Source: a virus
Taxonomy: Duplodnaviria; Heunggongvirae; Uroviricota; Caudoviricetes
Direction: 5' to 3' (one strand)
DNA length: 64,000 nt
IMG/VR virus record: IMGVR_UViG_3300029983_000009
Coordinates: 64,001 to 128,000 of that record
Shown: piece after piece, positions 12,014-31,678 of the stretch
How the letters are laid out: every line of letters starts with the position of its first letter
How positions within the stretch are numbered: the first letter of the stretch is position 1
Program-made: the position numbers and the translations under genes
Notes under the pieces: generated by a model
What the model was told of the DNA's origin: nothing
The model's database searches: none
Seen by the model: the letters and a program-made list of their open reading frames with translations, nothing else

Positions 12014-12952
12014 ATGAAAGAAGAAAAAAGATTAGTTATGACTTGTGGATTACCTGCTGCAGGTAAATCAGGTATTGTTGAATCTTATGTTGATTATAAT
12101 TACACCTTATTATCAAGAGATATTGAAGGTGGTACATTAATTTCACTTAATAAGAAACTTGAAGCACTGATGATAGATGGTGTTGATATTGTATTAGATG
12201 GTACATATACAACTAAGTTATCTCGTTCTGAAGTTATTGAATTAGCAAAAAAATATGACTACTATATAATTTGCCTTTATTTCACCACAAAGATTGAAGA
12301 TTGTATGTTCAATCAGGTAACAAGAATGATAAGAAAATATGATAGATTATTTACAGAATTAAGTGATTATTCTAAAGTTAATGATCCACATATGTTTCCT
12401 GTAGCTGCACTTTATAAAATGAATAAACATTTTGAAACACCAGAATTATCAGAAGGTATTGATGATATAGAAAAAATAGATTTCAAAAGATATCCATCAG
12501 AGTATAAAAATAAAGCAATCTTCTTTGATTATGACGGCACTTTGAGATTAACGAAAAGTGGAGGACATTATCCAACAGATATTAGTGATATTGAAATAAT
12601 TCCTGGTAGAACAGAAAAACTTTTAGAATTACAGAGTCAAGGTTATATATTACTTGGTGTTTCAAATCAAAGTGGTATAGCAAAAGGATTATTAACTCAT
12701 GAGACTGCAATAGAATGTTTTGAAAAGACAAATGAAATGTTAGGAGTTAATATTGATTATAAATATTGCGGGCACTCTGTTCCTCCAATCACTTGCTATT
12801 GTAGAAAGCCAGGAGTTGGCTTTGGAGTTGAATTCATTGAGAAATATAAACTTGATCCATCACAATGTATAATGGTTGGAGATTTGACAAGTGATAAAAC
12901 ATTCGCTAAACGATGTGGCTTTAAATATGTTGATGCCTCTAATTTTTTCTAA
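12014..12952 (+). CDS. P-loop kinase (AAA_33/PNK-like) fused to HAD-IIIA phosphatase (GmhB/PNKP-like)
   Basis: Walker A GLPAAGKS, IVLDGT, DYDGT, SNQSGIAKG, CGHS...CYCRKP, MVGD..SD. Confidence 0.88.
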   Translation: MKEEKRLVMTCGLPAAGKSGIVESYVDYNYTLLSRDIEGGTLISLNKKLEALMIDGVDIVLDGTYTTKLSRSEVIELAKKYDYYIICLYFTTKIEDCMFNQVTRMIRKYDRLFTELSDYSKVNDPHMFPVAALYKMNKHFETPELSEGIDDIEKIDFKRYPSEYKNKAIFFDYDGTLRLTKSGGHYPTDISDIEIIPGRTEKLLELQSQGYILLGVSNQSGIAKGLLTHETAIECFEKTNEMLGVNIDYKYCGHSVPPITCYCRKPGVGFGVEFIEKYKLDPSQCIMVGDLTSDKTFAKRCGFKYVDASNFF

Positions 12953-21564: not shown

Positions 21565-21864
21565 ATGAAATATATAAAAACATTTGAATTCGTTGTTAAA
21601 GATATTGAAATACCTATTGGATATTACGTTATACCTGTTCTTAAAGGTATAAATTATGATATTCAATATAAAACAAAAATAAGTAATAATATTTTTCAAA
21701 TAATAAACAAAAGCAAAACTCAATATAAAATTGATTTTAAAGATTATTATCATGAAGATGGTTTTTGGATTGATAAAAAAGATGTATTTAAATATTCATC
21801 TGTTAAAAAAATATTAGAAGACAAATTGGAATTAATTAAGCAAACAAATAAATTCAATGTATGA
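21565..21864 (+). CDS. cassette protein (array 3), SH3-like
   Basis: MKYIKTFE...IGYYVI...NKFNV. Confidence 0.85.
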   Translation: MKYIKTFEFVVKDIEIPIGYYVIPVLKGINYDIQYKTKISNNIFQIINKSKTQYKIDFKDYYHEDGFWIDKKDVFKYSSVKKILEDKLELIKQTNKFNV

Positions 21865-22238
21865 TAACTAAATTTAAACTATATGAAACAATAAAAAAAT
21901 CGCCAAAAACTAAAAAAATATTAGTTAAAGATTATAAAATAGGAGATTACGTTATTTGTGAAAGTGAATCATTTCCTATGTTAAGTGATTTTACATCATC
22001 TAATGTTGGACAGATAATAGATATTCTAAATATAAGAGAACGTTTTGATAATTATGTTATTCAATATGATTATATTCCAGATAATTTAAAACATTCATTT
22101 CAAATACAATGTCACGATAATGATCCAAATAAAAAATATGAAAATTCAGTAACTGTAACCAGGACAGAAATAAAATTTCTATCTGATAAAAAATCAGATT
22201 TGGAATATTTATCAAATTCAAAAAAATTCAATATATGA
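21861..22238 (+). CDS. cassette protein (array 3), GDYV/SH3-like
   Basis: MITKFKLYE...IGDYVI...KKFNI. Confidence 0.85.
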   Translation: MITKFKLYETIKKSPKTKKILVKDYKIGDYVICESESFPMLSDFTSSNVGQIIDILNIRERFDNYVIQYDYIPDNLKHSFQIQCHDNDPNKKYENSVTVTRTEIKFLSDKKSDLEYLSNSKKFNI

Positions 22239-22582
22239 TAACAAAATTTAAAATATTTGAAATAAAAAATTATACTCCTGAATATTTAAATGATTTAAAA
22301 ATAGGAGATAAAATTATATATGTAGGTCACCAGTCTAACTATTTAAAAGAAGGTGATATATTTATTATAAATTCTATTGTGAAGTATTCAGAAAATAATG
22401 GACATAGATATTATTTAGATGTTGATACAATAGGAAAAGGTGATTTAATTTCAATTAAAACTGAAAATGGATATGTTATTAATGATAAAGATGACGGATC
22501 TGATAAACTTTTTTTTCCAAACAAATTTACTACTCCTGAGATTTATAATATAACTAATGATTCTAAAAAATTCAATTTATAA
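22235..22582 (+). CDS. cassette protein (array 3), SH3-like
   Basis: MITKFKIFE...IGDKII...KKFNL. Confidence 0.85.
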   Translation: MITKFKIFEIKNYTPEYLNDLKIGDKIIYVGHQSNYLKEGDIFIINSIVKYSENNGHRYYLDVDTIGKGDLISIKTENGYVINDKDDGSDKLFFPNKFTTPEIYNITNDSKKFNL

Positions 22583-22583
22583 C

Positions 22584-23123
22584 TCATTTATATAAAATTT
22601 TCTTCATATTATTAGAGTTAACTGATTCTCCATCAAATGCTTCTATTTCCCAAGGTCTTTGATTATAATCAATGTCTGATATATCAATAGATTCATTCAA
22701 CCAATAATAAACTCCTGTTCTACTAATAAATAAAGTTTTATCATAATATTGTTTTAAATGAATCAATTCATGAGATAATATGCGAATATTTTCACTTCTA
22801 TTATAATCACCAATAAATATGTAATATATTCCATTAGAATCAACTATATATGCTTTTAGTTCAATGTCCTCATTATTAATTACTGTTGATTTCAATTCGA
22901 TATTTTTTATTATAACTGTAACGGTATCAATTTTTAGAGATAGTAATCCTGATTCTACTATTGTATCTAAATATGGTTTGTTTGTTAAGTTATATATGTG
23001 ATGATAATTAGTAATTTCAATTTTACTAAATGACTTATCTTTAATAGTTGCAATTTTATAAACTATAAATATTAAAGACAAAACAGCCAAAATTATTAAT
23101 ATTATTTTAATTGTTTTATTCAT
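22584..23123 (-). CDS. membrane-anchored putative zinc metallopeptidase
   Basis: N-terminal TM; HELIH (HExxH) and PWEIEA. Confidence 0.75.
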   Translation of the reverse strand: MNKTIKIILIILAVLSLIFIVYKIATIKDKSFSKIEITNYHHIYNLTNKPYLDTIVESGLLSLKIDTVTVIIKNIELKSTVINNEDIELKAYIVDSNGIYYIFIGDYNRSENIRILSHELIHLKQYYDKTLFISRTGVYYWLNESIDISDIDYNQRPWEIEAFDGESVNSNNMKKILYK

Positions 23124-23647
23124 TTGTGTGTTATTTTTTTTAATGATTCAATTGTTAAATTTATATTACTATTAATCCAACCACATAGCTGATTAGATAT
23201 TTTATTTTCAGTTTCTCTATCCTTTTTTGCCATATTCAACCAAAATGATAATGGCTTTACTATTAAATCATATTTTTTCCCTCCTAACCATAACGAATTT
23301 ATTGTTGCTGAGTATTTATTTGTAGATCTATTTATACCATTTGGATTAACTTCAATATTTTTTATAACATTGAATATTGTATCTGTAGGATCTGATTTTT
23401 TTAATTGAGTTATCATTGCATTATCATCAATAATTTCGTCATTAATTATTCTATTTAGTGAATTTATTGAATCAATTGACTTAGTAACAACTTGTTCTGT
23501 TAATTTTCCTATTGGCAACAATAAATTTTTAAGATTATCTATTATTTTATTTGCTTTTATTCCTGCATTATATCTTGCATTTTCTGGTGTAAATCCATCA
23601 GTTAGTACATTTTCATTAAATCTATCAAAACTTTTTATATTTTTCAT
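23120..23647 (-). CDS. hypothetical protein with CTS-like N-terminus only
   Basis: MKNIKSFDRFNE; TAATATATA upstream. Confidence 0.8.
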   Translation of the reverse strand: MKNIKSFDRFNENVLTDGFTPENARYNAGIKANKIIDNLKNLLLPIGKLTEQVVTKSIDSINSLNRIINDEIIDDNAMITQLKKSDPTDTIFNVIKNIEVNPNGINRSTNKYSATINSLWLGGKKYDLIVKPLSFWLNMAKKDRETENKISNQLCGWINSNINLTIESLKKITHK

Positions 23648-23681
23648 GATACCATATATATTAAAAAAAAGAAATAAAAAT

Positions 23682-24098
23682 ATGATTAAAGTTTATATAG
23701 CTTCACCATATACAAAAGGTGATGTTGCAGTTAATGTAAAAACACAAATGGATACTGCAGATGAATTGATGAATAAAGGATTTGTACCATTTACTCCATT
23801 ATATTCACATTTTCAGCATATGGCTCATCCAAGACCATATGAAGATTGGTTAAAATTGGACTTTGAATGGATTCCAGTGTGTGATTGCATTTTAAGATTA
23901 CCAGGAGATTCAAGTGGAGCAGACAATGAAGTAGAATTTGCTATTACTAATAATATACTAGTGTTCTATTCATTGAATGATTTATGTAAATATTATAATG
24001 GGTTTGAAGATTTAGATGAATCTGAAAAAATTATAAAACATAAAACAAAAAGTGATAGAAATATAGGTCGTCCTTGGAATAGAAATATTCAAATTTGA
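23682..24098 (+). CDS. nucleoside 2-deoxyribosyltransferase-like fold protein (DUF4406/DUF1937-like)
   Basis: VYIASPY, W...D...I..CD..L.LPG.S.GA..E..FA; ATG 23682. Confidence 0.75.
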   Translation: MIKVYIASPYTKGDVAVNVKTQMDTADELMNKGFVPFTPLYSHFQHMAHPRPYEDWLKLDFEWIPVCDCILRLPGDSSGADNEVEFAITNNILVFYSLNDLCKYYNGFEDLDESEKIIKHKTKSDRNIGRPWNRNIQI

Positions 24099-24380
24099 AA
24101 ATATTTTAAAATTTATCTATAAATGTTTGGTAGTTTCAAAAACTTTTTATACTTTTGTACTACAAACAAAACAAAAACATCAAGTAAGAGTACTTGAAAA
24201 TAAAGTTCAAAACTTTAACATTAAATATTTGGTAAAACAAAAAACTTTTTGTAATTTTGCACTACAATATCAAATGAAAAGTGATTGTAAAAAATCATAA
24301 TTTAAAATGATAAAAAAAGTTCAAAACTTTAACATTAAATATTTGGTAAAACAAAAAACTTTTTGTAATTTTGAACTACA

Positions 24381-24628
24381 ATAAAAACAAATCAAATTTC
24401 AGATTGAAAAAAATCTAATGGTATAGAAACCACCTTAAAGCTTGCAAGAGGATGATAGTGCAAATGAACACACTTAGATTAATTAAATTTTGTAATAAAA
24501 AACTCACTATTTTTAAGTAATTTTTTATAGTGAAAAATAAAATACAGAATTTAAAAAGTAAATATAATAAATGAAAATTTATTGTTTCTAATCTGTGAAG
24601 ATAAAAGAACTGAAAATGATTTGATTTT
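24381..24628 (+). ncRNA. candidate structured small RNA, copy I (~250 nt)
   Basis: Starts after promoter 24366; 5' AAATCAAAT/TTTCAG/CAGATT complementary to 3' AATCTG/CTGAAA/ATTTGATTT; holds one pseudoknot module; no ORF. Confidence 0.5.
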
Positions 24629-25079
24629 AAAAAAATCTCTTGTAAAAGTACTTGAGAAAATGTATAAAAAATAACAAAAATATTTGGCAAAACAGAAAAC
24701 TTTTTGTAATTTTGAACTACAATAATTTAAATCAAAAAATCAGATTTAAACAAGAAATATCAGCATTAGTAACTTATCTAATAATATATTTATAAGAAGA
24801 TGTATTAAAAAAGATGAATCTGAAAGTGTGAATGGTGAATTAATGATAAGATTGTAATCTTATACAATAAAAAAACTATCAAAGATAAATATCCGTTGAA
24901 GTAGATATATAAGTTATGTAGAACTTATCTTGTTATAAATGTAAATAGTAACTACACCGTGGAAATACAATATTTGAATTAAATTTGGAATATTATAAAT
25001 CCTAATGTTAGATGATATGTGACTGACTGCTATTACTTTCACTACAAGAACTGACTATTGATTAAATTATAAAAAATGA

Positions 25080-25167
25080 TGAAGATAAGCACACAGGGTG
25101 CAGCACGATTCAAATTGTGCAGAAGGCAAGTGTTACTGACACTGGGTTCAACTCCATCTATCTTCAC
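25080..25167 (+). tRNA. tRNA-Sec-like element (anticodon TCA), atypical
   Basis: 8-bp acceptor TGAAGATA/TATCTTCA, GCAC/GTGC D-arm, GCACG-attcaaat-TGTGC arm (TCA 25110-25112), long variable arm AGTGT/ACACT, GGTTCAACTCC; loop sizes non-canonical, no CCA. Confidence 0.55.
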
Positions 25168-25459
25168 TATGAATATTGATTTCAACACTGAAAAACAAAC
25201 TTCGGTTTTAAGTAAGTTCCACTATTGATATTCATAACCAAAACAAGAGAGTTTTGATTATCTTATAAAATTTGATAATTGTAAAAAAATTAATTTAAAT
25301 CTCTTGAAAAAGAGTAGTTAATTTTAATATGATATTTAAAAAAATTGTTTAATTAAAATTCCTTGAATAAAAAATCAAGTAGGAGTACTTGAAAATAGTT
25401 TGAAACTTTAACATTAAATATTTGGTAAAACAAAAAACTTTTTGTAATTTCACACTATA

Positions 25460-25671
25460 ATAAAAAAGAAAATCACAATTCATATTTAATGGATAATCTA
25501 ATGGTATAAAAACCACCTTGAAGCTTGCAAAAGGAGATAGTGCAAATGAACACTCTTAGATTTATAATAATACATTTCGCAGATTTGTAAAGTTACAAGA
25601 ATAAATATGATTTAAAGTTTATTTTTTCTAATCTGAGAAGATAAAAGAACTTATAAATGATTTTATTTTTT
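25460..25671 (+). ncRNA. candidate structured small RNA, copy II
   Basis: Same module order as copy I (leader, pseudoknot module, TTTTCTAATCTG.GAAGATAAAAGAAC trailer). Confidence 0.45.
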
Positions 25672-25768
25672 AATACTCATTCAAGTAAGAGTACTTGATA
25701 AAAAAAGTTCAAAACTTTAACATTAAATATTTGGTAAAACAAAAAACTTTTTGTAATTTTGAACTACA

Positions 25769-26358
25769 ATAATGAAACAAATCAAATTTCAGATTGAAGC
25801 AATGAAAATATAATGGTACAAAAACCACCTTGAAGCTTGCAAGAGGATGATAGTGCAAATGAACACAACTTATATATTAATTATCTTGCTTATACAATTT
25901 AATATCTAATTAGATAAAAACCACCTTGAAGCTTGCAAAAGGATTAAGTGTAATTGATCATACTTAGATATTAATAATTGAAAAAGTGAAAAATAATCTA
26001 TGATAACCAACTTTATTGATGGTATGAGTAATTATTAATATCATGACAGTAAATGTTGTATAACCAACTAAAAATCTAATGGTACAGAAACCACCTTGAA
26101 GCTTGCAAAAGGAGATAGTGCAAATAAACACACTTAGACATTAATAATTGAAAAAGCAATAAAAATAATCAAAGGCAAAAGCCAACTTGAAGCTTGCAAA
26201 AGTGTATGATTAATATTGCAGAAGTAAATATTGCAGAAGTAATAAAGATTCAAGGATTGATATTACAAAAGTAAATATAATGAACATAATAATGTTTATT
26301 GTTCCACTGAAAAAAGTTCTGTGAAGAACAAAAGGACTGAAATAGATTTGTGTCATTT
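25769..26358 (+). ncRNA. candidate structured RNA, expanded copy III with four pseudoknot modules
   Basis: 5' AATGAAACAAATC..TTTCAG pairs with 3' CTGAAA..GATTTGTGTCATT. Confidence 0.5.
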
Positions 26359-26569
26359 TCAAGTAAAAGTACTTGAAAAACAACAAGAAACAATACATTT
26401 AGATTTATTAGTAAATATAACTATGAAAATGGTTAATTTACAAGTTTAAGAGGTTAGTTCCTTTTATTAGATCTAAATTCTTTTAGTTAAGAAATGATAG
26501 TATAAAAATTTACTATAATCTAAATGTTTGTTTTTTATTTAAAAGCGTTCTTTGTAAAATTGAAAATAT

Positions 26570-27540
26570 TTGGCTGTCTGTAGTCATTAAATAAACTACG
26601 AAAGTAGGATAAAGTGAATATGTAGTTGTTTCTATATATTTGCGACATCAAATGATTTATTATTTAACAGATTATTAGGCTAATAGTTTGACATATAATT
26701 GTTCGTAAATAAACTTACTTCGGTGAGTTTATATAAAACATTCAATTATGTGAATAATAGTTATTAGTTATAAAAATTTGTTAGTAATATTCATTTAGTG
26801 TTCGAGCAGACAATCAGGATATCATTAAACCTTAATTATCGAGGGTAACACTATAGAGAAAGTGGTTTAATGCAAGGGCTATGTGGGTAGTCTAAGTGAG
26901 ATGGGAACATCAATAAGAATAACCTGAAGGATTATTGCAAGAAACACGATTTCCAGTTGTGTAATTGCGTTATCCAATATAAAAGTTGGCTTAAAACCGA
27001 AAGGTAAATAAGATTGTAATCCAATGTACAGGTGGTGCTGTTATTAAGGTTACCCTATCTTTACCAAAGGATATGAGAGTGTCTTAGTTAACTTAAAATA
27101 TGGAGGTAGGGATATCTCAGAGAGTAGTTTAGTATAGCTCCGTTCAAAAGATGGAGAATCTGGTTGTCGAACCACTACTTTCATCATCCACAAAACAAAC
27201 TTTAACTGCAAATTTAATGCAAAATTAAAATAAACAAATAAAGGAAAAGAGTTCGACTGTTGTTGGAGATAGGTGACTACTAGTTATGAGAAGAAATTCG
27301 TTATAGCCGTGAAAGACCCCAAGTCTAACATGATTTTTAAGAAAGTTCTCTAAATCCGCAAGATTTAATCTGGAAGGCATTCTAGATGAGTAATGATTAT
27401 TAAGAGAGTATCTAACAACAAAAGGAGTGGTGAATCTAATTGACCGTCATTGGAGGAGTACCAATTCAAAAGATTGGTGGAAAAGAAGCAGAAAAAATAA
27501 TAGTTTCTAAAGTTCTTCTCTATAATGCTGTATTCTCAAG
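26570..27540 (+). ncRNA. large (~1 kb) structured non-coding RNA, GOLLD/ROOL-class candidate
   Basis: No ORF of 60 aa or more, visibly higher GC, GNRA/UUCG hairpins (26596, 26711, 26996), multi-branch helices, long-range pairings, terminator directly after. Confidence 0.65.
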
Positions 27541-27546
27541 CAATAT

Positions 27547-27589
27547 AAAAAAAATCCTATCTAATTGAAAAATCAGATAGGATTTTTTT
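27547..27589. terminator. bidirectional intrinsic terminator
   Basis: AAAAAAATCCTATCT...AGATAGGATTTTTTT. Confidence 0.85.
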
Positions 27590-27590
27590 G

Positions 27591-27643
27591 TTATAAGCTA
27601 TTTCACTTATAAATACGCATTATAAGCTATTTCACTTATAAAT
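27591..27643. repeat. 24-bp direct repeat
   Basis: TTATAAGCTATTTCACTTATAAAT at 27591-27614 and 27620-27643. Confidence 0.9.
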
Positions 27644-27947
27644 TGAATTTTTTTATATCTGTTTTAAATGTATTATCTTTCATATATTCTTCAACATCAT
27701 CATCAATTACTATATATTCTCTATTTTTTAAGCACAATCTATCATCCACATACTTTCCTTTTTGATCTAAATACACTCCAACATCACCATTACAATAACC
27801 AAATGGATGTGTCAAAGTGCCAGTTAAGTATTCACCTTCATCTTTAAATTTGATTTTAGTGCCTACTGGATATTTAGATTTACCTGCTAATAACATTTCT
27901 CCATTAAATGTAGTAAAATGATGCTCATCGAATTTTTGAATTTTCAT
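27636..27947 (-). CDS. cassette protein, SH3-like
   Basis: MKIQKFDE...YPVGTKI...KKFNL. Confidence 0.85.
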   Translation of the reverse strand: MKIQKFDEHHFTTFNGEMLLAGKSKYPVGTKIKFKDEGEYLTGTLTHPFGYCNGDVGVYLDQKGKYVDDRLCLKNREYIVIDDDVEEYMKDNTFKTDIKKFNL

Positions 27948-27949
27948 AA

Positions 27950-28330
27950 TTATAAATTAAATTTTTCTATGTTTTTTTTCATTAAATACTCTTCATATTT
28001 TTCTGAATATTTTTTTCTTATTTTTTCTATTACTTTATCTCCATATAAATGTTCCTCTATCAATTGAATAAAATCTGTTTTACTATCATCTTTTACATAC
28101 CAATCAGGATTATATTTTAATAATAGATATAAAATACTCCAATATCCTTTATACGAAGCATATAATAATGCATTATTTTTTTCTCCAACTACTGTACTAT
28201 TAATATCAAATCCAGAATCTAATAATCTTTTAACTTTAGAATACTGATTATTATATACAGCATCAATTAATTCATTTTCAATAGTATAATATTTTTTCTT
28301 TTTATATTCAAAAGTTTTTATGTATTTCAT
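27950..28330 (-). CDS. cassette protein, ankyrin repeats
   Basis: Start corrected to MKYIKTFE at 28330; GFDINS, NALLYAS; EKFNL. Confidence 0.85.
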   Translation of the reverse strand: MKYIKTFEYKKKKYYTIENELIDAVYNNQYSKVKRLLDSGFDINSTVVGEKNNALLYASYKGYWSILYLLLKYNPDWYVKDDSKTDFIQLIEEHLYGDKVIEKIRKKYSEKYEEYLMKKNIEKFNL

Positions 28331-28331
28331 A

Positions 28332-28778
28332 TTATAAGTTGAATTTTTTAGACATCGAAACATCAGGCATATTTATTTCTTGCCATTTTTTGTATTCATA
28401 CAAATTATTATAGGGTAATTTATTTCCAGTGCATACTAATAGTGTTAGTGACTCTGGAAGAATTGGTAACTCAGTTAAATTATTATCACAACAATTCAAA
28501 ATTTCTAATGAATAAGGTAATACTGGCAATTCAGATAAATTATTTGAATAACAAAATATTTTTTTTATTGTATATGGTAAAGTAGGTAGTTCACGCAAAT
28601 CATTACCAAAACATGACAATATTTCTAATGAACTTGGTAATTTTGGTAACCTGACCAAGTGATTATGATAACAATATAATTCTTTTGCTGTATCTGGTAA
28701 CTCTGGTAGTAAGCTAAGTCCTTTATCATTATACTTTAGTACTTCTACTATACTTTCAAACCGTTTTAAGTATTTCAT
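28332..28778 (-). CDS. cassette protein, short bacterial-type leucine-rich repeats
   Basis: LP.LP..L..L.C..N.L repeated about five times; KKFNL. Confidence 0.9.
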   Translation of the reverse strand: MKYLKRFESIVEVLKYNDKGLSLLPELPDTAKELYCYHNHLVRLPKLPSSLEILSCFGNDLRELPTLPYTIKKIFCYSNNLSELPVLPYSLEILNCCDNNLTELPILPESLTLLVCTGNKLPYNNLYEYKKWQEINMPDVSMSKKFNL

Positions 28779-29248
28779 AAGTTAAATTTATTTGTCATTT
28801 TAAACAATTCGAAATTTGTATCATTTATTTTATTTATTATTTCAGGTAATTTATCTAATGGAATCCAATATCTATTATCATTCTTTACCGATATATCTTC
28901 ACATGAACTATTGCGTATAATATCAGATAAAAAATTTTGAATATTTTCCATGAAATTCATTTTTGGATGATAACAATAAAGAATTGCATTTCTACTAAGA
29001 TTATAATGTAACTCTACAACTTCTGCTGCGTCATCTAAATCATGTGGATCAACAAAAATACTTATTATATCGTAATACTTTTTATTATTAATTCCATATA
29101 TATTTGAATAAACATCCCAATCATTATCTATAGCTTTTTCTATAGTTTTAGTTAATATTTCACTAAAATTAATAACCTCAATAGGTAATTTTTTTCTTTT
29201 TTTAAATATGTCAGTAAAATTATTTTCAAATGATTTTATATATTTCAT
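28775..29248 (-). CDS. cassette protein, unknown payload
   Basis: MKYIKSFE...NKFNL. Confidence 0.85.
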   Translation of the reverse strand: MKYIKSFENNFTDIFKKRKKLPIEVINFSEILTKTIEKAIDNDWDVYSNIYGINNKKYYDIISIFVDPHDLDDAAEVVELHYNLSRNAILYCYHPKMNFMENIQNFLSDIIRNSSCEDISVKNDNRYWIPLDKLPEIINKINDTNFELFKMTNKFNL

Positions 29249-29646
29249 AAGTTAAATTTATTTACATTTTTTAGTGAAGGCAGGCAATCTAATAATTCTT
29301 GTAAATCATCCGAATCTTTCATTATATAACTAAGACTAGTTTCTGATAAATTATAATACATTCCTTGTTTTTTATTATTTTTTAATTTATCTGTATTTAA
29401 ATTATATGTATATAATTTCTTTGTTACTATAAAAAGATTTGTGTGATCATAGCAAGCTTCTATTCTATCTTTTTCTAATATGAAATATATACCAGATTCA
29501 ATAAATTTCTTCACATCATGAAATAATATATATTTCTTCATGACCTTATATGCTTTTTTTATATCGTTATCAGCCTTTTTTTGAATATTTCTAACATCTC
29601 TTATATAATCGTCTCTTTCACTTTCAAATTTCTTTATGTATTTCAT
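29245..29646 (-). CDS. cassette protein, unknown payload
   Basis: MKYIKKFE...NKFNL. Confidence 0.85.
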   Translation of the reverse strand: MKYIKKFESERDDYIRDVRNIQKKADNDIKKAYKVMKKYILFHDVKKFIESGIYFILEKDRIEACYDHTNLFIVTKKLYTYNLNTDKLKNNKKQGMYYNLSETSLSYIMKDSDDLQELLDCLPSLKNVNKFNL

Positions 29647-30023
29647 ATGTTAAATTTTTTTGAAGAACGTGTCACAGGATTAAGAATATCTAAATCTTCA
29701 TCTACATTTTTTTGTTGATTGTCATATATTTTTATCAATTCTTTCCATAATTTATTAGAAAACTCATGATTTGATATAGGATGTCCAGTTATAATTCCTT
29801 TATATTCACCTGATATTATTCTCTGTGATTTATTATATTTACCAACAGAGTAAATGCCTATATGTGAAAAAGAATATATATAATCATCTATTTCTATTGT
29901 ATATCCTCCGTTATGTGAAATTTTAATATTTTCTTCTTTTACAATATCAAAAATTCTTGAAACTATTGAATCTCCTTCTTTTGATTTATTAAACCAAGTA
30001 TTCATTTCTTTTATATATTTCAT
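29643..30023 (-). CDS. cassette protein, unknown payload
   Basis: MKYIKE...KKFNI. Confidence 0.85.
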   Translation of the reverse strand: MKYIKEMNTWFNKSKEGDSIVSRIFDIVKEENIKISHNGGYTIEIDDYIYSFSHIGIYSVGKYNKSQRIISGEYKGIITGHPISNHEFSNKLWKELIKIYDNQQKNVDEDLDILNPVTRSSKKFNI

Positions 30024-30586
30024 ATGTTAAATTTATTTGCATTTTTAATCATTAAAAAATTACTATATTTATCAGGATATTTTTCTATGATTTCTTTTTT
30101 ATACAAAGGATATAAATATTCAATAAATGTATTACCTAAATCATCAGATACATTCCAATCAGCGTCATTTTCAATCAGCATTTTAATTATTTTAAATGCC
30201 TTTTTATCTTTATAGTTAGAACACATAATTAATACTGTTTCACCATCATTATTTCTGATATCTAAATCAGCGCCTGATTCAATTAAATATTGTGTCATTT
30301 CTTCTTTTTTATTTCTTCCAGCTAGTATTAGTGGTGTATTTCCAAATGTATCAGTATAATTAATATCTGCTCCTGATTCAATTAAAAATTTAAATATTGT
30401 AAATAAACTAAATCTTATAGAATATATCAAAGGAGTATCGCCATTTTTATCTTTAATATTAAGATTAATATTAGGTATCTCAGATACTAATTCTTTTATT
30501 TTTGGTAAATCTGAGTGATAAAGATATCTAAATATGTCTTTTTCATCATAAAAATTTATCAATTCAAATTGTTTTAAATATTTCAT
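30020..30586 (-). CDS. cassette protein, ankyrin repeats
   Basis: NGDTPLIYS, GADINYTDTFGNTPLILA, GADLDIRN; NKFNI. Confidence 0.9.
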   Translation of the reverse strand: MKYLKQFELINFYDEKDIFRYLYHSDLPKIKELVSEIPNINLNIKDKNGDTPLIYSIRFSLFTIFKFLIESGADINYTDTFGNTPLILAGRNKKEEMTQYLIESGADLDIRNNDGETVLIMCSNYKDKKAFKIIKMLIENDADWNVSDDLGNTFIEYLYPLYKKEIIEKYPDKYSNFLMIKNANKFNI

Positions 30587-30906
30587 AAATTAAATTTTTT
30601 TGTTGATAATTTTAGTTCTAAATCTTCAATTGTTCTAGCATAATCTACTACATCATCAGTACTCAATTGTATATGATATACATAATATTTACCTTGCTTA
30701 TTAAAAAATTCTACAAGTTCATCTGGTATGTATTGAAATCCAAATTTAAACCATATTGGACTATATCCATTTGTTTCAATAATTTTACAAAAATTATTTC
30801 TAAAAAAACTATTTAATTCTGAATTAAGTGTTTGAAAATTTAACTTAGCATAATCTCCTTTTTTTATATCTCTATTTGTTTTTTCAAATTTTTTTATATA
30901 TTTCAT
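30583..30906 (-). CDS. cassette protein, GDYV/SH3-like
   Basis: MKYIKKFE...KGDYA...KKFNL. Confidence 0.85.
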   Translation of the reverse strand: MKYIKKFEKTNRDIKKGDYAKLNFQTLNSELNSFFRNNFCKIIETNGYSPIWFKFGFQYIPDELVEFFNKQGKYYVYHIQLSTDDVVDYARTIEDLELKLSTKKFNL

Positions 30907-31337
30907 AAATTAAATTTATTTGCATTTTTATTTAAATTAAGTTCTTTTACTATTTCTGGATATTTTTTATCAAACCATTTTTTTAATTTTTCATCAATCA
31001 TAAAATCATAAAATGTTTTACCTTCAAACTTAAAATTATAATCAATTCCGTTATCTAACAATAATTCAATCATCTTCTTTTGTTCATATAAATCAACATC
31101 TTCTATTATAACCTTAATTAATATATTTTGTCCATCATAAATATCATTTATTTTATCTAGATATTTTGGTAATAAATATTCAAATCTTTTAAGATTTCCA
31201 ATATGTACAGATTGAAAAAGTTTACTAAATCTATGATCATTTTCCAATTCGTTTTCTAAATATTCATCCCACATATTCACATCAGAAGATTTAAATATGT
31301 TAGTAAATCTATTTTCAAATTTTTTGATATATTTCAT
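30903..31337 (-). CDS. cassette protein, degenerate ankyrin-like
   Basis: LLDNGIDYN..GKTFYDF..KYP; NKFNL. Confidence 0.8.
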   Translation of the reverse strand: MKYIKKFENRFTNIFKSSDVNMWDEYLENELENDHRFSKLFQSVHIGNLKRFEYLLPKYLDKINDIYDGQNILIKVIIEDVDLYEQKKMIELLLDNGIDYNFKFEGKTFYDFMIDEKLKKWFDKKYPEIVKELNLNKNANKFNL

Positions 31338-31678
31338 ATGTTATATTTTAATGCATCTTTTTTTCTATTAAAAACTTCTATCTCACTTGAGTTTAGTTTT
31401 CTTATTATTTCATCTGATTGAACTCCATATGAATTATTTATTTCTTTATTATAATTATAAAATATGACATTATATAGAAATTGACCATTATTCAATTCAA
31501 CTGTAATTTCATTTATTAATGCATATTTATCAAATGGCGTAGGATCACCATTTTCATCTACATCTACGTCACCACTCTCATTATTATTATATCTAATTTT
31601 ATCTAAATCTAATAAAACATAATCACCTTTCTTATAATCACTATTTGATAAATCTTCAAAGCATTTCAAGTATTTCAT
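31334..31678 (-). CDS. cassette protein, GDYV/SH3-like (array head)
   Basis: MKYLKCFE...KGDYVL...LKYNI; paralog of 60854. Confidence 0.85.
   Translation of the reverse strand: MKYLKCFEDLSNSDYKKGDYVLLDLDKIRYNNNESGDVDVDENGDPTPFDKYALINEITVELNNGQFLYNVIFYNYNKEINNSYGVQSDEIIRKLNSSEIEVFNRKKDALKYNI

Follow-up and report, generated by a model that had tools for sequence, protein, structure and literature searches.

A GOLLD RNA gene with a long P5 arm and no neighbouring tRNA genes in a phage contig from peat

The DNA analysed here, a window of 64 kb, belongs to a 168-kb contig found in peat metagenomes (23% GC; an IMG/VR virus record estimated to be 24% complete), and the host of this phage is probably a member of the Bacteroidota. 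GOLLD is a very large RNA of phages, copies of which assemble by themselves into a hollow cage. We scanned the whole window against Rfam with cmscan and obtained a single match, GOLLD (RF02032), on the plus strand at 27120-27542 (274.8 bits, with an Rfam cut-off of 150 bits; E = 2.5e-77; model positions 1-416 of 416); that it is phage-encoded follows from the virus-record status of the contig, in which no capsid or terminase gene was identified. A sequence-only reading had proposed a ~1-kb ornate non-coding RNA at 26570-27540, either a GOLLD- or ROOL-class member or a new class, with a cmscan search as the check. The region (26565-27545) folds with a z score of -6.5, its 5' 555 nt alone with -7.0 and the P5 arm with -6.4, and no shuffle was as good. 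Since the GOLLD match spans the whole model, the RNA is confirmed and the option of a new class falls, its novelty with it. The proposed boundaries were almost exact (Table 1).

Table 1. Features of the GOLLD locus in window coordinates; paired counts refer to the 60-sequence alignment described in the text.
Feature	Position	Strand	Details
Five consensus Bacteroidota sigma-A promoters (24126, 24228, 24342, 24683, 25730)	24126-25761	+	all facing GOLLD
Six copies of a 70-90-nt repeat	24410-26225	+	H-type pseudoknot-compatible core; upstream of GOLLD, same strand
Near copy of Bacteroidota sigma-A promoter	about 25421	+	faces GOLLD
Nearest Bacteroidota-type -7 box TAGATTTG, then 18-bp spaced palindrome	26343-26376	+	candidate promoter and operator
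boxA-like antitermination signal, core GTTCTTTG	26545-26554	+	23 nt before RNA
GOLLD RNA gene, env-38 type	26570-27542	+	973 nt; Rfam match and profile/alignment
P1 hairpin	26571-26586	+	342/360 (95%) paired; loop pairs with 26806-26811 as pseudoknot P2
A-rich joiner AAATAAA and P3 with GAAA loop (bridge B1 donor)	26589-26607	+	both invariant (60/60); P3 240/240 paired
P4 hairpin	26614-26643	+	base 300/300 paired
Extended P5 rod	26644-26803	+	160 nt, about 61 bp, 21% GC, C(UUCG)G tetraloop cap
P6-P12, remainder of 5' domain	26804-27119	+	alignment; bridge list from PMC12286853 supplement
Bridge element B2	26841-26851	+	hairpin
Bridge element B3, loop GGAA	26904	+	within P6-P12 region
Bridge element B4	26952-26954/27110-27112	+	180/180 paired
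L11a, GAAA	26999	+	within P6-P12 region
Bridge element B5	27033-27036/27063-27066	+	240/240 paired
Conserved 3' domain (Rfam GOLLD model)	27120-27542	+	cmscan and alignment
L14	27144	+	in 3' domain
Bridge element B7	27243-27244/27319-27320	+	120/120 paired; GG/CC to GC/GC switch
P15 long-range helix	27259-27267/27411-27419	+	98% paired; double changes in 8/9 pairs
L21a; L21b	27356; 27376	+	in 3' domain
P27	27526-27542	+	in 3' domain
Bidirectional intrinsic terminator hairpin	27543-27594	.	between GOLLD and convergent gene 27636-27947 (-)

The Rfam model describes the conserved 3' domain only and leaves the 5' 550 nt without a model, so we compared the 5' domain across viral loci carrying the 3' GOLLD motif, of which at least 119 were taken. 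The segment 26570-27119 matched DNA upstream of other GOLLD loci in two blocks (approximately the first 60-80 nt, then 230-550) with a gap between them, and nhmmer recovered the 5' domain from almost every GOLLD locus whose flanking sequence was long enough (E = 1e-19 to 1e-85). By profile, the full RNA measures 790-842 nt in most loci, 873 nt in L015 and the six near-identical loci that make up a clade of peat phages with it, and 973 nt in the window, which is longer than usual because its stem P5 takes up 160 nt, not 16-34 nt. The 5' motifs agree with those of env-38, as compared by eye with a machine-read supplement that contains errors. The variable A-rich linker J13/15 is present (about 27183-27240), and one G-G and one U-U mismatch lie in P23 and beside P21. 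For this locus the analysis established that the RNA belongs to GOLLD, how its domains and helices are laid out, and that a leader and a terminator flank it; we conclude with high confidence that 26570-27542 is a full-length env-38-type GOLLD of a large peat phage. The RNA is one more member of a known family, carrying a rare long peripheral arm and having no adjacent tRNAs.

Helix support was counted over 60 distinct aligned GOLLD sequences (the window and 59 others), a related set chosen by one 3' motif among the matches listed, in which counts are not independent events. P3, P4, P12, P13, P19, P21b and P24 were paired in 100% of cells (360/360 each for P19 and P21b), ranking by MI-APC put 44 canonical pairs among the 60 best column pairs, and two covarying column pairs supported the base of P5. 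The hairpins picked out from sequence alone were all present: CTAC-GAAA-GTAG at 26596-26607, a TTCG hairpin at 26711-26730 that is the apex of the long P5 arm, and ACC-GAAA-GGT at 26996-27005, as was the loop TCAAAAG, used twice (27144 and 27466). A helix suggested between TGTCTG (26575) and CAGACA (26807) is real and corresponds to pseudoknot P2, formed from the P1 hairpin loop, with 26576-26581/26806-26811 as its best register (360/360 cells paired; double changes in 3 of 6 pairs). The second long-range helix, TGTTGTT..GATA/TATC..AACAACA, held in part, its TGTTGTT/AACAACA portion being P15, but the GATA/TATC portion paired in only 50% of cells and was rejected. We also rejected a three-way junction at 27122-27180, where Rfam and the alignment give one long P13/P14 stem with an internal bulge and where GGTT/AACC, the additional arm, is paired in 58% of cells and shows zero double changes.

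Upstream of the RNA, the GTTCTTTG core is similar to the boxA consensus described for E. coli and B. subtilis (PMC13753749), and we read it as a putative NusB-S10 loading site. The core was found no more than 120 nt upstream in 58 of 60 GOLLDs, versus 12 matches in the next 600 nt further up; its usual place is 32-36 nt downstream of a TAnnTTTG box. It was also found in 71 of 103 16S leaders (mostly from Bacteroidota genomes), versus 15 matches in 87 x 900 nt of controls. As in the rrn leader, where boxA is the NusB-S10 site, the core in the window stands between promoter and long structured RNA; it differs in belonging to a phage RNA gene, in being followed by T and not the usual A, and in that no boxB-like hairpin was seen. 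Among GOLLD loci L001-L116, most have, 20-110 nt upstream, a leader between boxA and P1 in which variable hairpins are framed by conserved ends, TATCC...GATAA; this leader is absent in the window, L086 and L002. The terminator expected after the RNA is indeed there. A consensus scan listed it on the minus strand only, and it reads as bidirectional because an A-run precedes and a T-run follows the hairpin; the RNA contig of a relative ends nearby, at 27535. An exact 24-nt direct repeat (29-nt spacing) lies just past it, at 27591-27643.

With the Bacteroidota promoter consensus, a scan of the window returned 9 matches versus 3.5 expected, 5 of them within the 1.6 kb at 24126-25761, and a sigma-70 scan did no better than shuffles (27 versus 25.8). 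The window scan found no perfect promoter directly before boxA, and the consensus scan found no plus-strand terminator between the upstream promoters and GOLLD. Six consensus Bacteroidota sigma-A promoter copies lie on the same strand in L120/L121. A perfect spaced palindrome, TCAAGTA-N4-TACTTGA, occurs four times (24180, 25375, 25681 and 26359), is confined to this upstream island with no copy elsewhere in the 168-kb contig, and is a candidate repressor or activator operator.

The 70-90-nt repeats include five full pseudoknot-compatible cores in the window and, in one L120 copy, a compensatory first stem; alternatively, they can fold into a cloverleaf of four arms, closed by a 7-bp stem that covaries. 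They occur in 5-8 copies in L015 and L120 and before no other GOLLDs, which limits them to this phage clade; they are covered by RNA contigs and gave no Rfam match. Within the island, a tRNA-like element at 25079-25170 has a long variable arm and a tmRNA-like 3' end, and it is probably not a decoding tRNA because the letters at the anticodon position differ among the window, L120 and L062. We rejected 24830-25170 as a tmRNA, since ARAGORN called it only at a lowered threshold, its tag was not identified and it had no Rfam match.

RNA evidence came from metatranscriptome contigs, which give no strand, ends or level and may reflect DNA carry-over. In library X19, one 615-nt contig runs from 26592 to 27206, through the P5 arm, and differs from the window at 1 position; contigs of at least 99% identity also cover 27273-27495, with depths of 3-4 in this library and of 2-5 for the window's own type overall. 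In library X22, a relative with a short arm, having 88 letters across P4-P5 where the window has 186, yields a 1304-nt contig that spans 26115-27535 at a depth of 451, and the protein genes at 27666-28200 were not covered by RNA contigs. A DNA run covered all 30 bins of the region, and gaps in the low-depth RNA runs X19 and X20 were not counted as evidence. The RNA contigs are a weak hint of GOLLD expression and of read-through from the repeats.

The cryo-EM structure of env-38 GOLLD is a 14-mer (PDB 9MEE; Kretsch et al., 2025, PMC12286853), with a cage 380 angstrom across (PMC12286853; PMC12990946) and bridge contacts B1-B10 tabulated in the supplement of PMC12286853. The window keeps the B1, B3 and B6 donor loops (GAAA, GGAA and A-rich), the B2 hairpin, the B4, B5 and B7 kissing pairs and the GC loops of B8 and B9; for B10 the A-rich donor loop is present and the receptor is aligned only. 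Judged from sequence, most cage-forming contact motifs of the 14-mer are present. The two RNAs share their two-domain layout, 5' motifs, A-rich linker, bridges as far as mapped, and phage encoding. They differ in that env-38 is a marine RNA of 833 nt with a P5 of roughly 26 nt and tRNA-Met upstream, whereas the copy from peat has no tRNA-Met upstream and is preceded by the promoter array and the pseudoknot-like repeats. The Streptococcus agalactiae GOLLD, a 700-nt dodecamer (PDB 9L0R), has the conserved 3' domain and the cage-forming loops L14, L20 and L21 in common with the window but is without P9, P11a-c and P21b (reviewed in PMC12990946). Because the window keeps the L11a/P11 and P21b elements missing from that dodecameric RNA, it groups with env-38, and the 14-mer is its nearest model. 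By homology, the window RNA would probably self-assemble, needing no protein, and its product would be a hollow cage of dihedral symmetry, the 14-mer being most likely.

The sole unusual feature of this GOLLD is its P5 arm, which exceeds that of most relatives five- to tenfold in length: P5 measures 16-34 nt in 50 relatives, 63 in L015, 157 in L120 and 160 in the window. Scans of viral and metagenome collections, which used exact motifs and gaps of 71-201 nt only and so give a lower bound, placed a long P5 elsewhere, among the scan matches, only in the L120/L121/L139/L149 phage, as one arm sequence. Five further matches (L124, L125, L127, L138 and L153) were ordinary GOLLDs caught via an upstream motif copy, and the remaining matches had no GOLLD match. 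A search of annotated phages returned one weak, unannotated 125-nt match and none for the arm. Between the window and L120 the arm is 69% identical, compared with 99% and 93% in its flanks and 90% in the upstream intergenic DNA. Pairing in the arm is nevertheless maintained: 51 of 60 window pairs are kept in L120 (null 41.1 ± 2.4; p = 2e-4), 4 double and 9 single compatible changes leave every pair of the consensus fold intact, and the folding energy of the L120 arm is -36.8 kcal/mol versus -21.7 ± 3.4 for randomly mutated arms. The L015 clade is 96-98% identical to the window in the 3' domain, yet its arm has 63 nt. Since the window is L120-like in 26570-26803 and L015-like in 27251-27530, arm alleles appear to have been exchanged between phages.

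We infer that the 160-nt P5 is a peripheral, tolerated extension, because the P3-P4-P5 junction is preserved at its base, none of the ten known cage bridges (bridge table, PMC12286853) involves its tip, and 63 nt suffice in close relatives. There are only two long-arm sequences, so selection for function is not separable from hairpin-driven mutation. We somewhat favour growth and continued pairing for mutational reasons, through template switching in a long quasi-palindrome and recombination of co-occurring phages, with selection acting only against disruption of the fold. This agrees with the base composition (45 of 61 pairs are A-U), the high divergence with indels, the mosaic pattern and hairpin insertions at other 5' positions (L085, L124); the nearly equal lengths of two arms that differ at 30% of positions speak against it, and we adopt it largely as the default within the best explanation. 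It is unlikely, if worth stating, that the long P5 is a selected functional module, a dsRNA rod present 14 times per cage that docks a protein, decoys host proteins that bind or cut dsRNA, or fills the cavity and changes its cargo. The arm does diverge faster than its flanks with pairing kept, holds its length at 157-160 nt and is present in an RNA contig, but it is known from only two independent sequences, the 63-nt type of the L015 clade is found at high depth in RNA, and no loop motif is conserved besides the ancestral UUCG cap, with no similar sequence elsewhere. An intron or mobile insert, excised to leave an ordinary 810-nt GOLLD, would suit an arm placed exactly where relatives carry a short hairpin. 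That origin is very improbable given that the arm has no Rfam intron match, no ORF and no second copy in the genome, that the RNA-library contig runs unbroken through it with no zero-letter joint skipping the arm seen, and that its UUCG cap is also the commonest cap among short P5 stems.

GOLLD often lies next to or inside tRNA arrays, a context that is typical of the family, not defining. ARAGORN called no tRNA genes in the 64-kb window and none within 26 kb of GOLLD, so the expected neighbourhood of tRNA genes fails here; three were called elsewhere in the contig, more than 50 kb away, and a tRNA gene lies within 3 kb in only 19 of 60 GOLLD loci, some of them incomplete. Their absence nearby, and the non-conserved anticodon position of the tRNA-like element, would fit a decaying pseudogene left after loss of a tRNA island. 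We regard such decay as highly improbable in an RNA with this Rfam score, every domain present, clade-specific compensatory changes (e.g. in P2 and P19), boxA and terminator intact, and existing RNA contigs. The chance that the RNA is a new ornate class, or ROOL or OLE, is practically nil: the lack of an Rfam model for the 5' 550 nt is its sole support, that model is confined to the 3' domain while the 5' part can be aligned to the 5' domains of further GOLLDs, and ROOL, OLE, group I/II introns, RNase P and tmRNA had no Rfam match at the gathering threshold or at E up to 10 (ROOL is, like GOLLD, a large phage RNA that forms a cage, but is unrelated in sequence and fold).

For the full-length env-38-type GOLLD that we favour, host RNA polymerase would, with good probability, start at the upstream Bacteroidota-type promoters, the boxA-like signal would load a NusB/S10 complex as on an rRNA leader, and the RNA would fold co-transcriptionally and end at the 27543-27594 hairpin. 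Most likely, the phage would thereby use host promoters and the rRNA antitermination complex to mass-produce a stable cage-forming RNA. Encapsulation of tRNAs, ribosomes or proteins has been proposed for the cage, citing a ribosome pull-down and higher expression during lysis (PMC12286853). We tentatively suggest, with more doubt than confidence, that the particle might help the phage to keep its grip on translation, either by storing or shielding tRNA or ribosomal cargo or by absorbing the RNA-cutting defences of the host in bulk; the neighbouring antitoxin-like repeats and a polynucleotide-kinase-like gene (12014-12952) would fit such a role. At 2.8 angstrom per pair the P5 rod would reach about 170-200 angstrom, half the cage diameter. 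It seems rather improbable that the cage carries fourteen such rods as multivalent decoys or docking arms and that an operon of rRNA style produces it, together with the antitoxin-like pseudoknot repeats, as part of an RNA island by which the phage counters host defence.

The natural pair of near-identical RNAs with P5 of 160 and 63 nt could reveal directly if P5 is directed inward or outward in the cage, and also what amount of cargo the P5 site tolerates, which would be useful for cage engineering. The window copy supports rRNA-style transcription of GOLLD without neighbouring tRNAs; alone, and from a phage whose host is uncultured, it does not settle the role of GOLLD.

Further features were noted in these genomes. 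In L085, L124, L127 and L138, extra hairpins lie between P1 and the AAATAAA joiner, marking a second insertion-tolerant site of the 5' domain. At about 2400-2050 of L120 (minus strand), a divergent GOLLD 3' end is followed first by ~200 nt of unrelated-looking DNA and then by a second, degenerate 3' end of the window type, which looks like a recombination replacement or insertion scar. Outside the window, a cluster of up to four tRNA-Gln-like genes lies at genome positions 159794-160126 (minus strand) and a tRNA with a CTA anticodon at 31316-31387. At 21565-31678 of the window and over the whole contig, the genes form a large cassette-like array with shared ends: among 358 ORFs longer than 70 aa, 80 have the C-terminal motif K[F/Y]N[L/I/V], and MKYIKxFE is the start of many.
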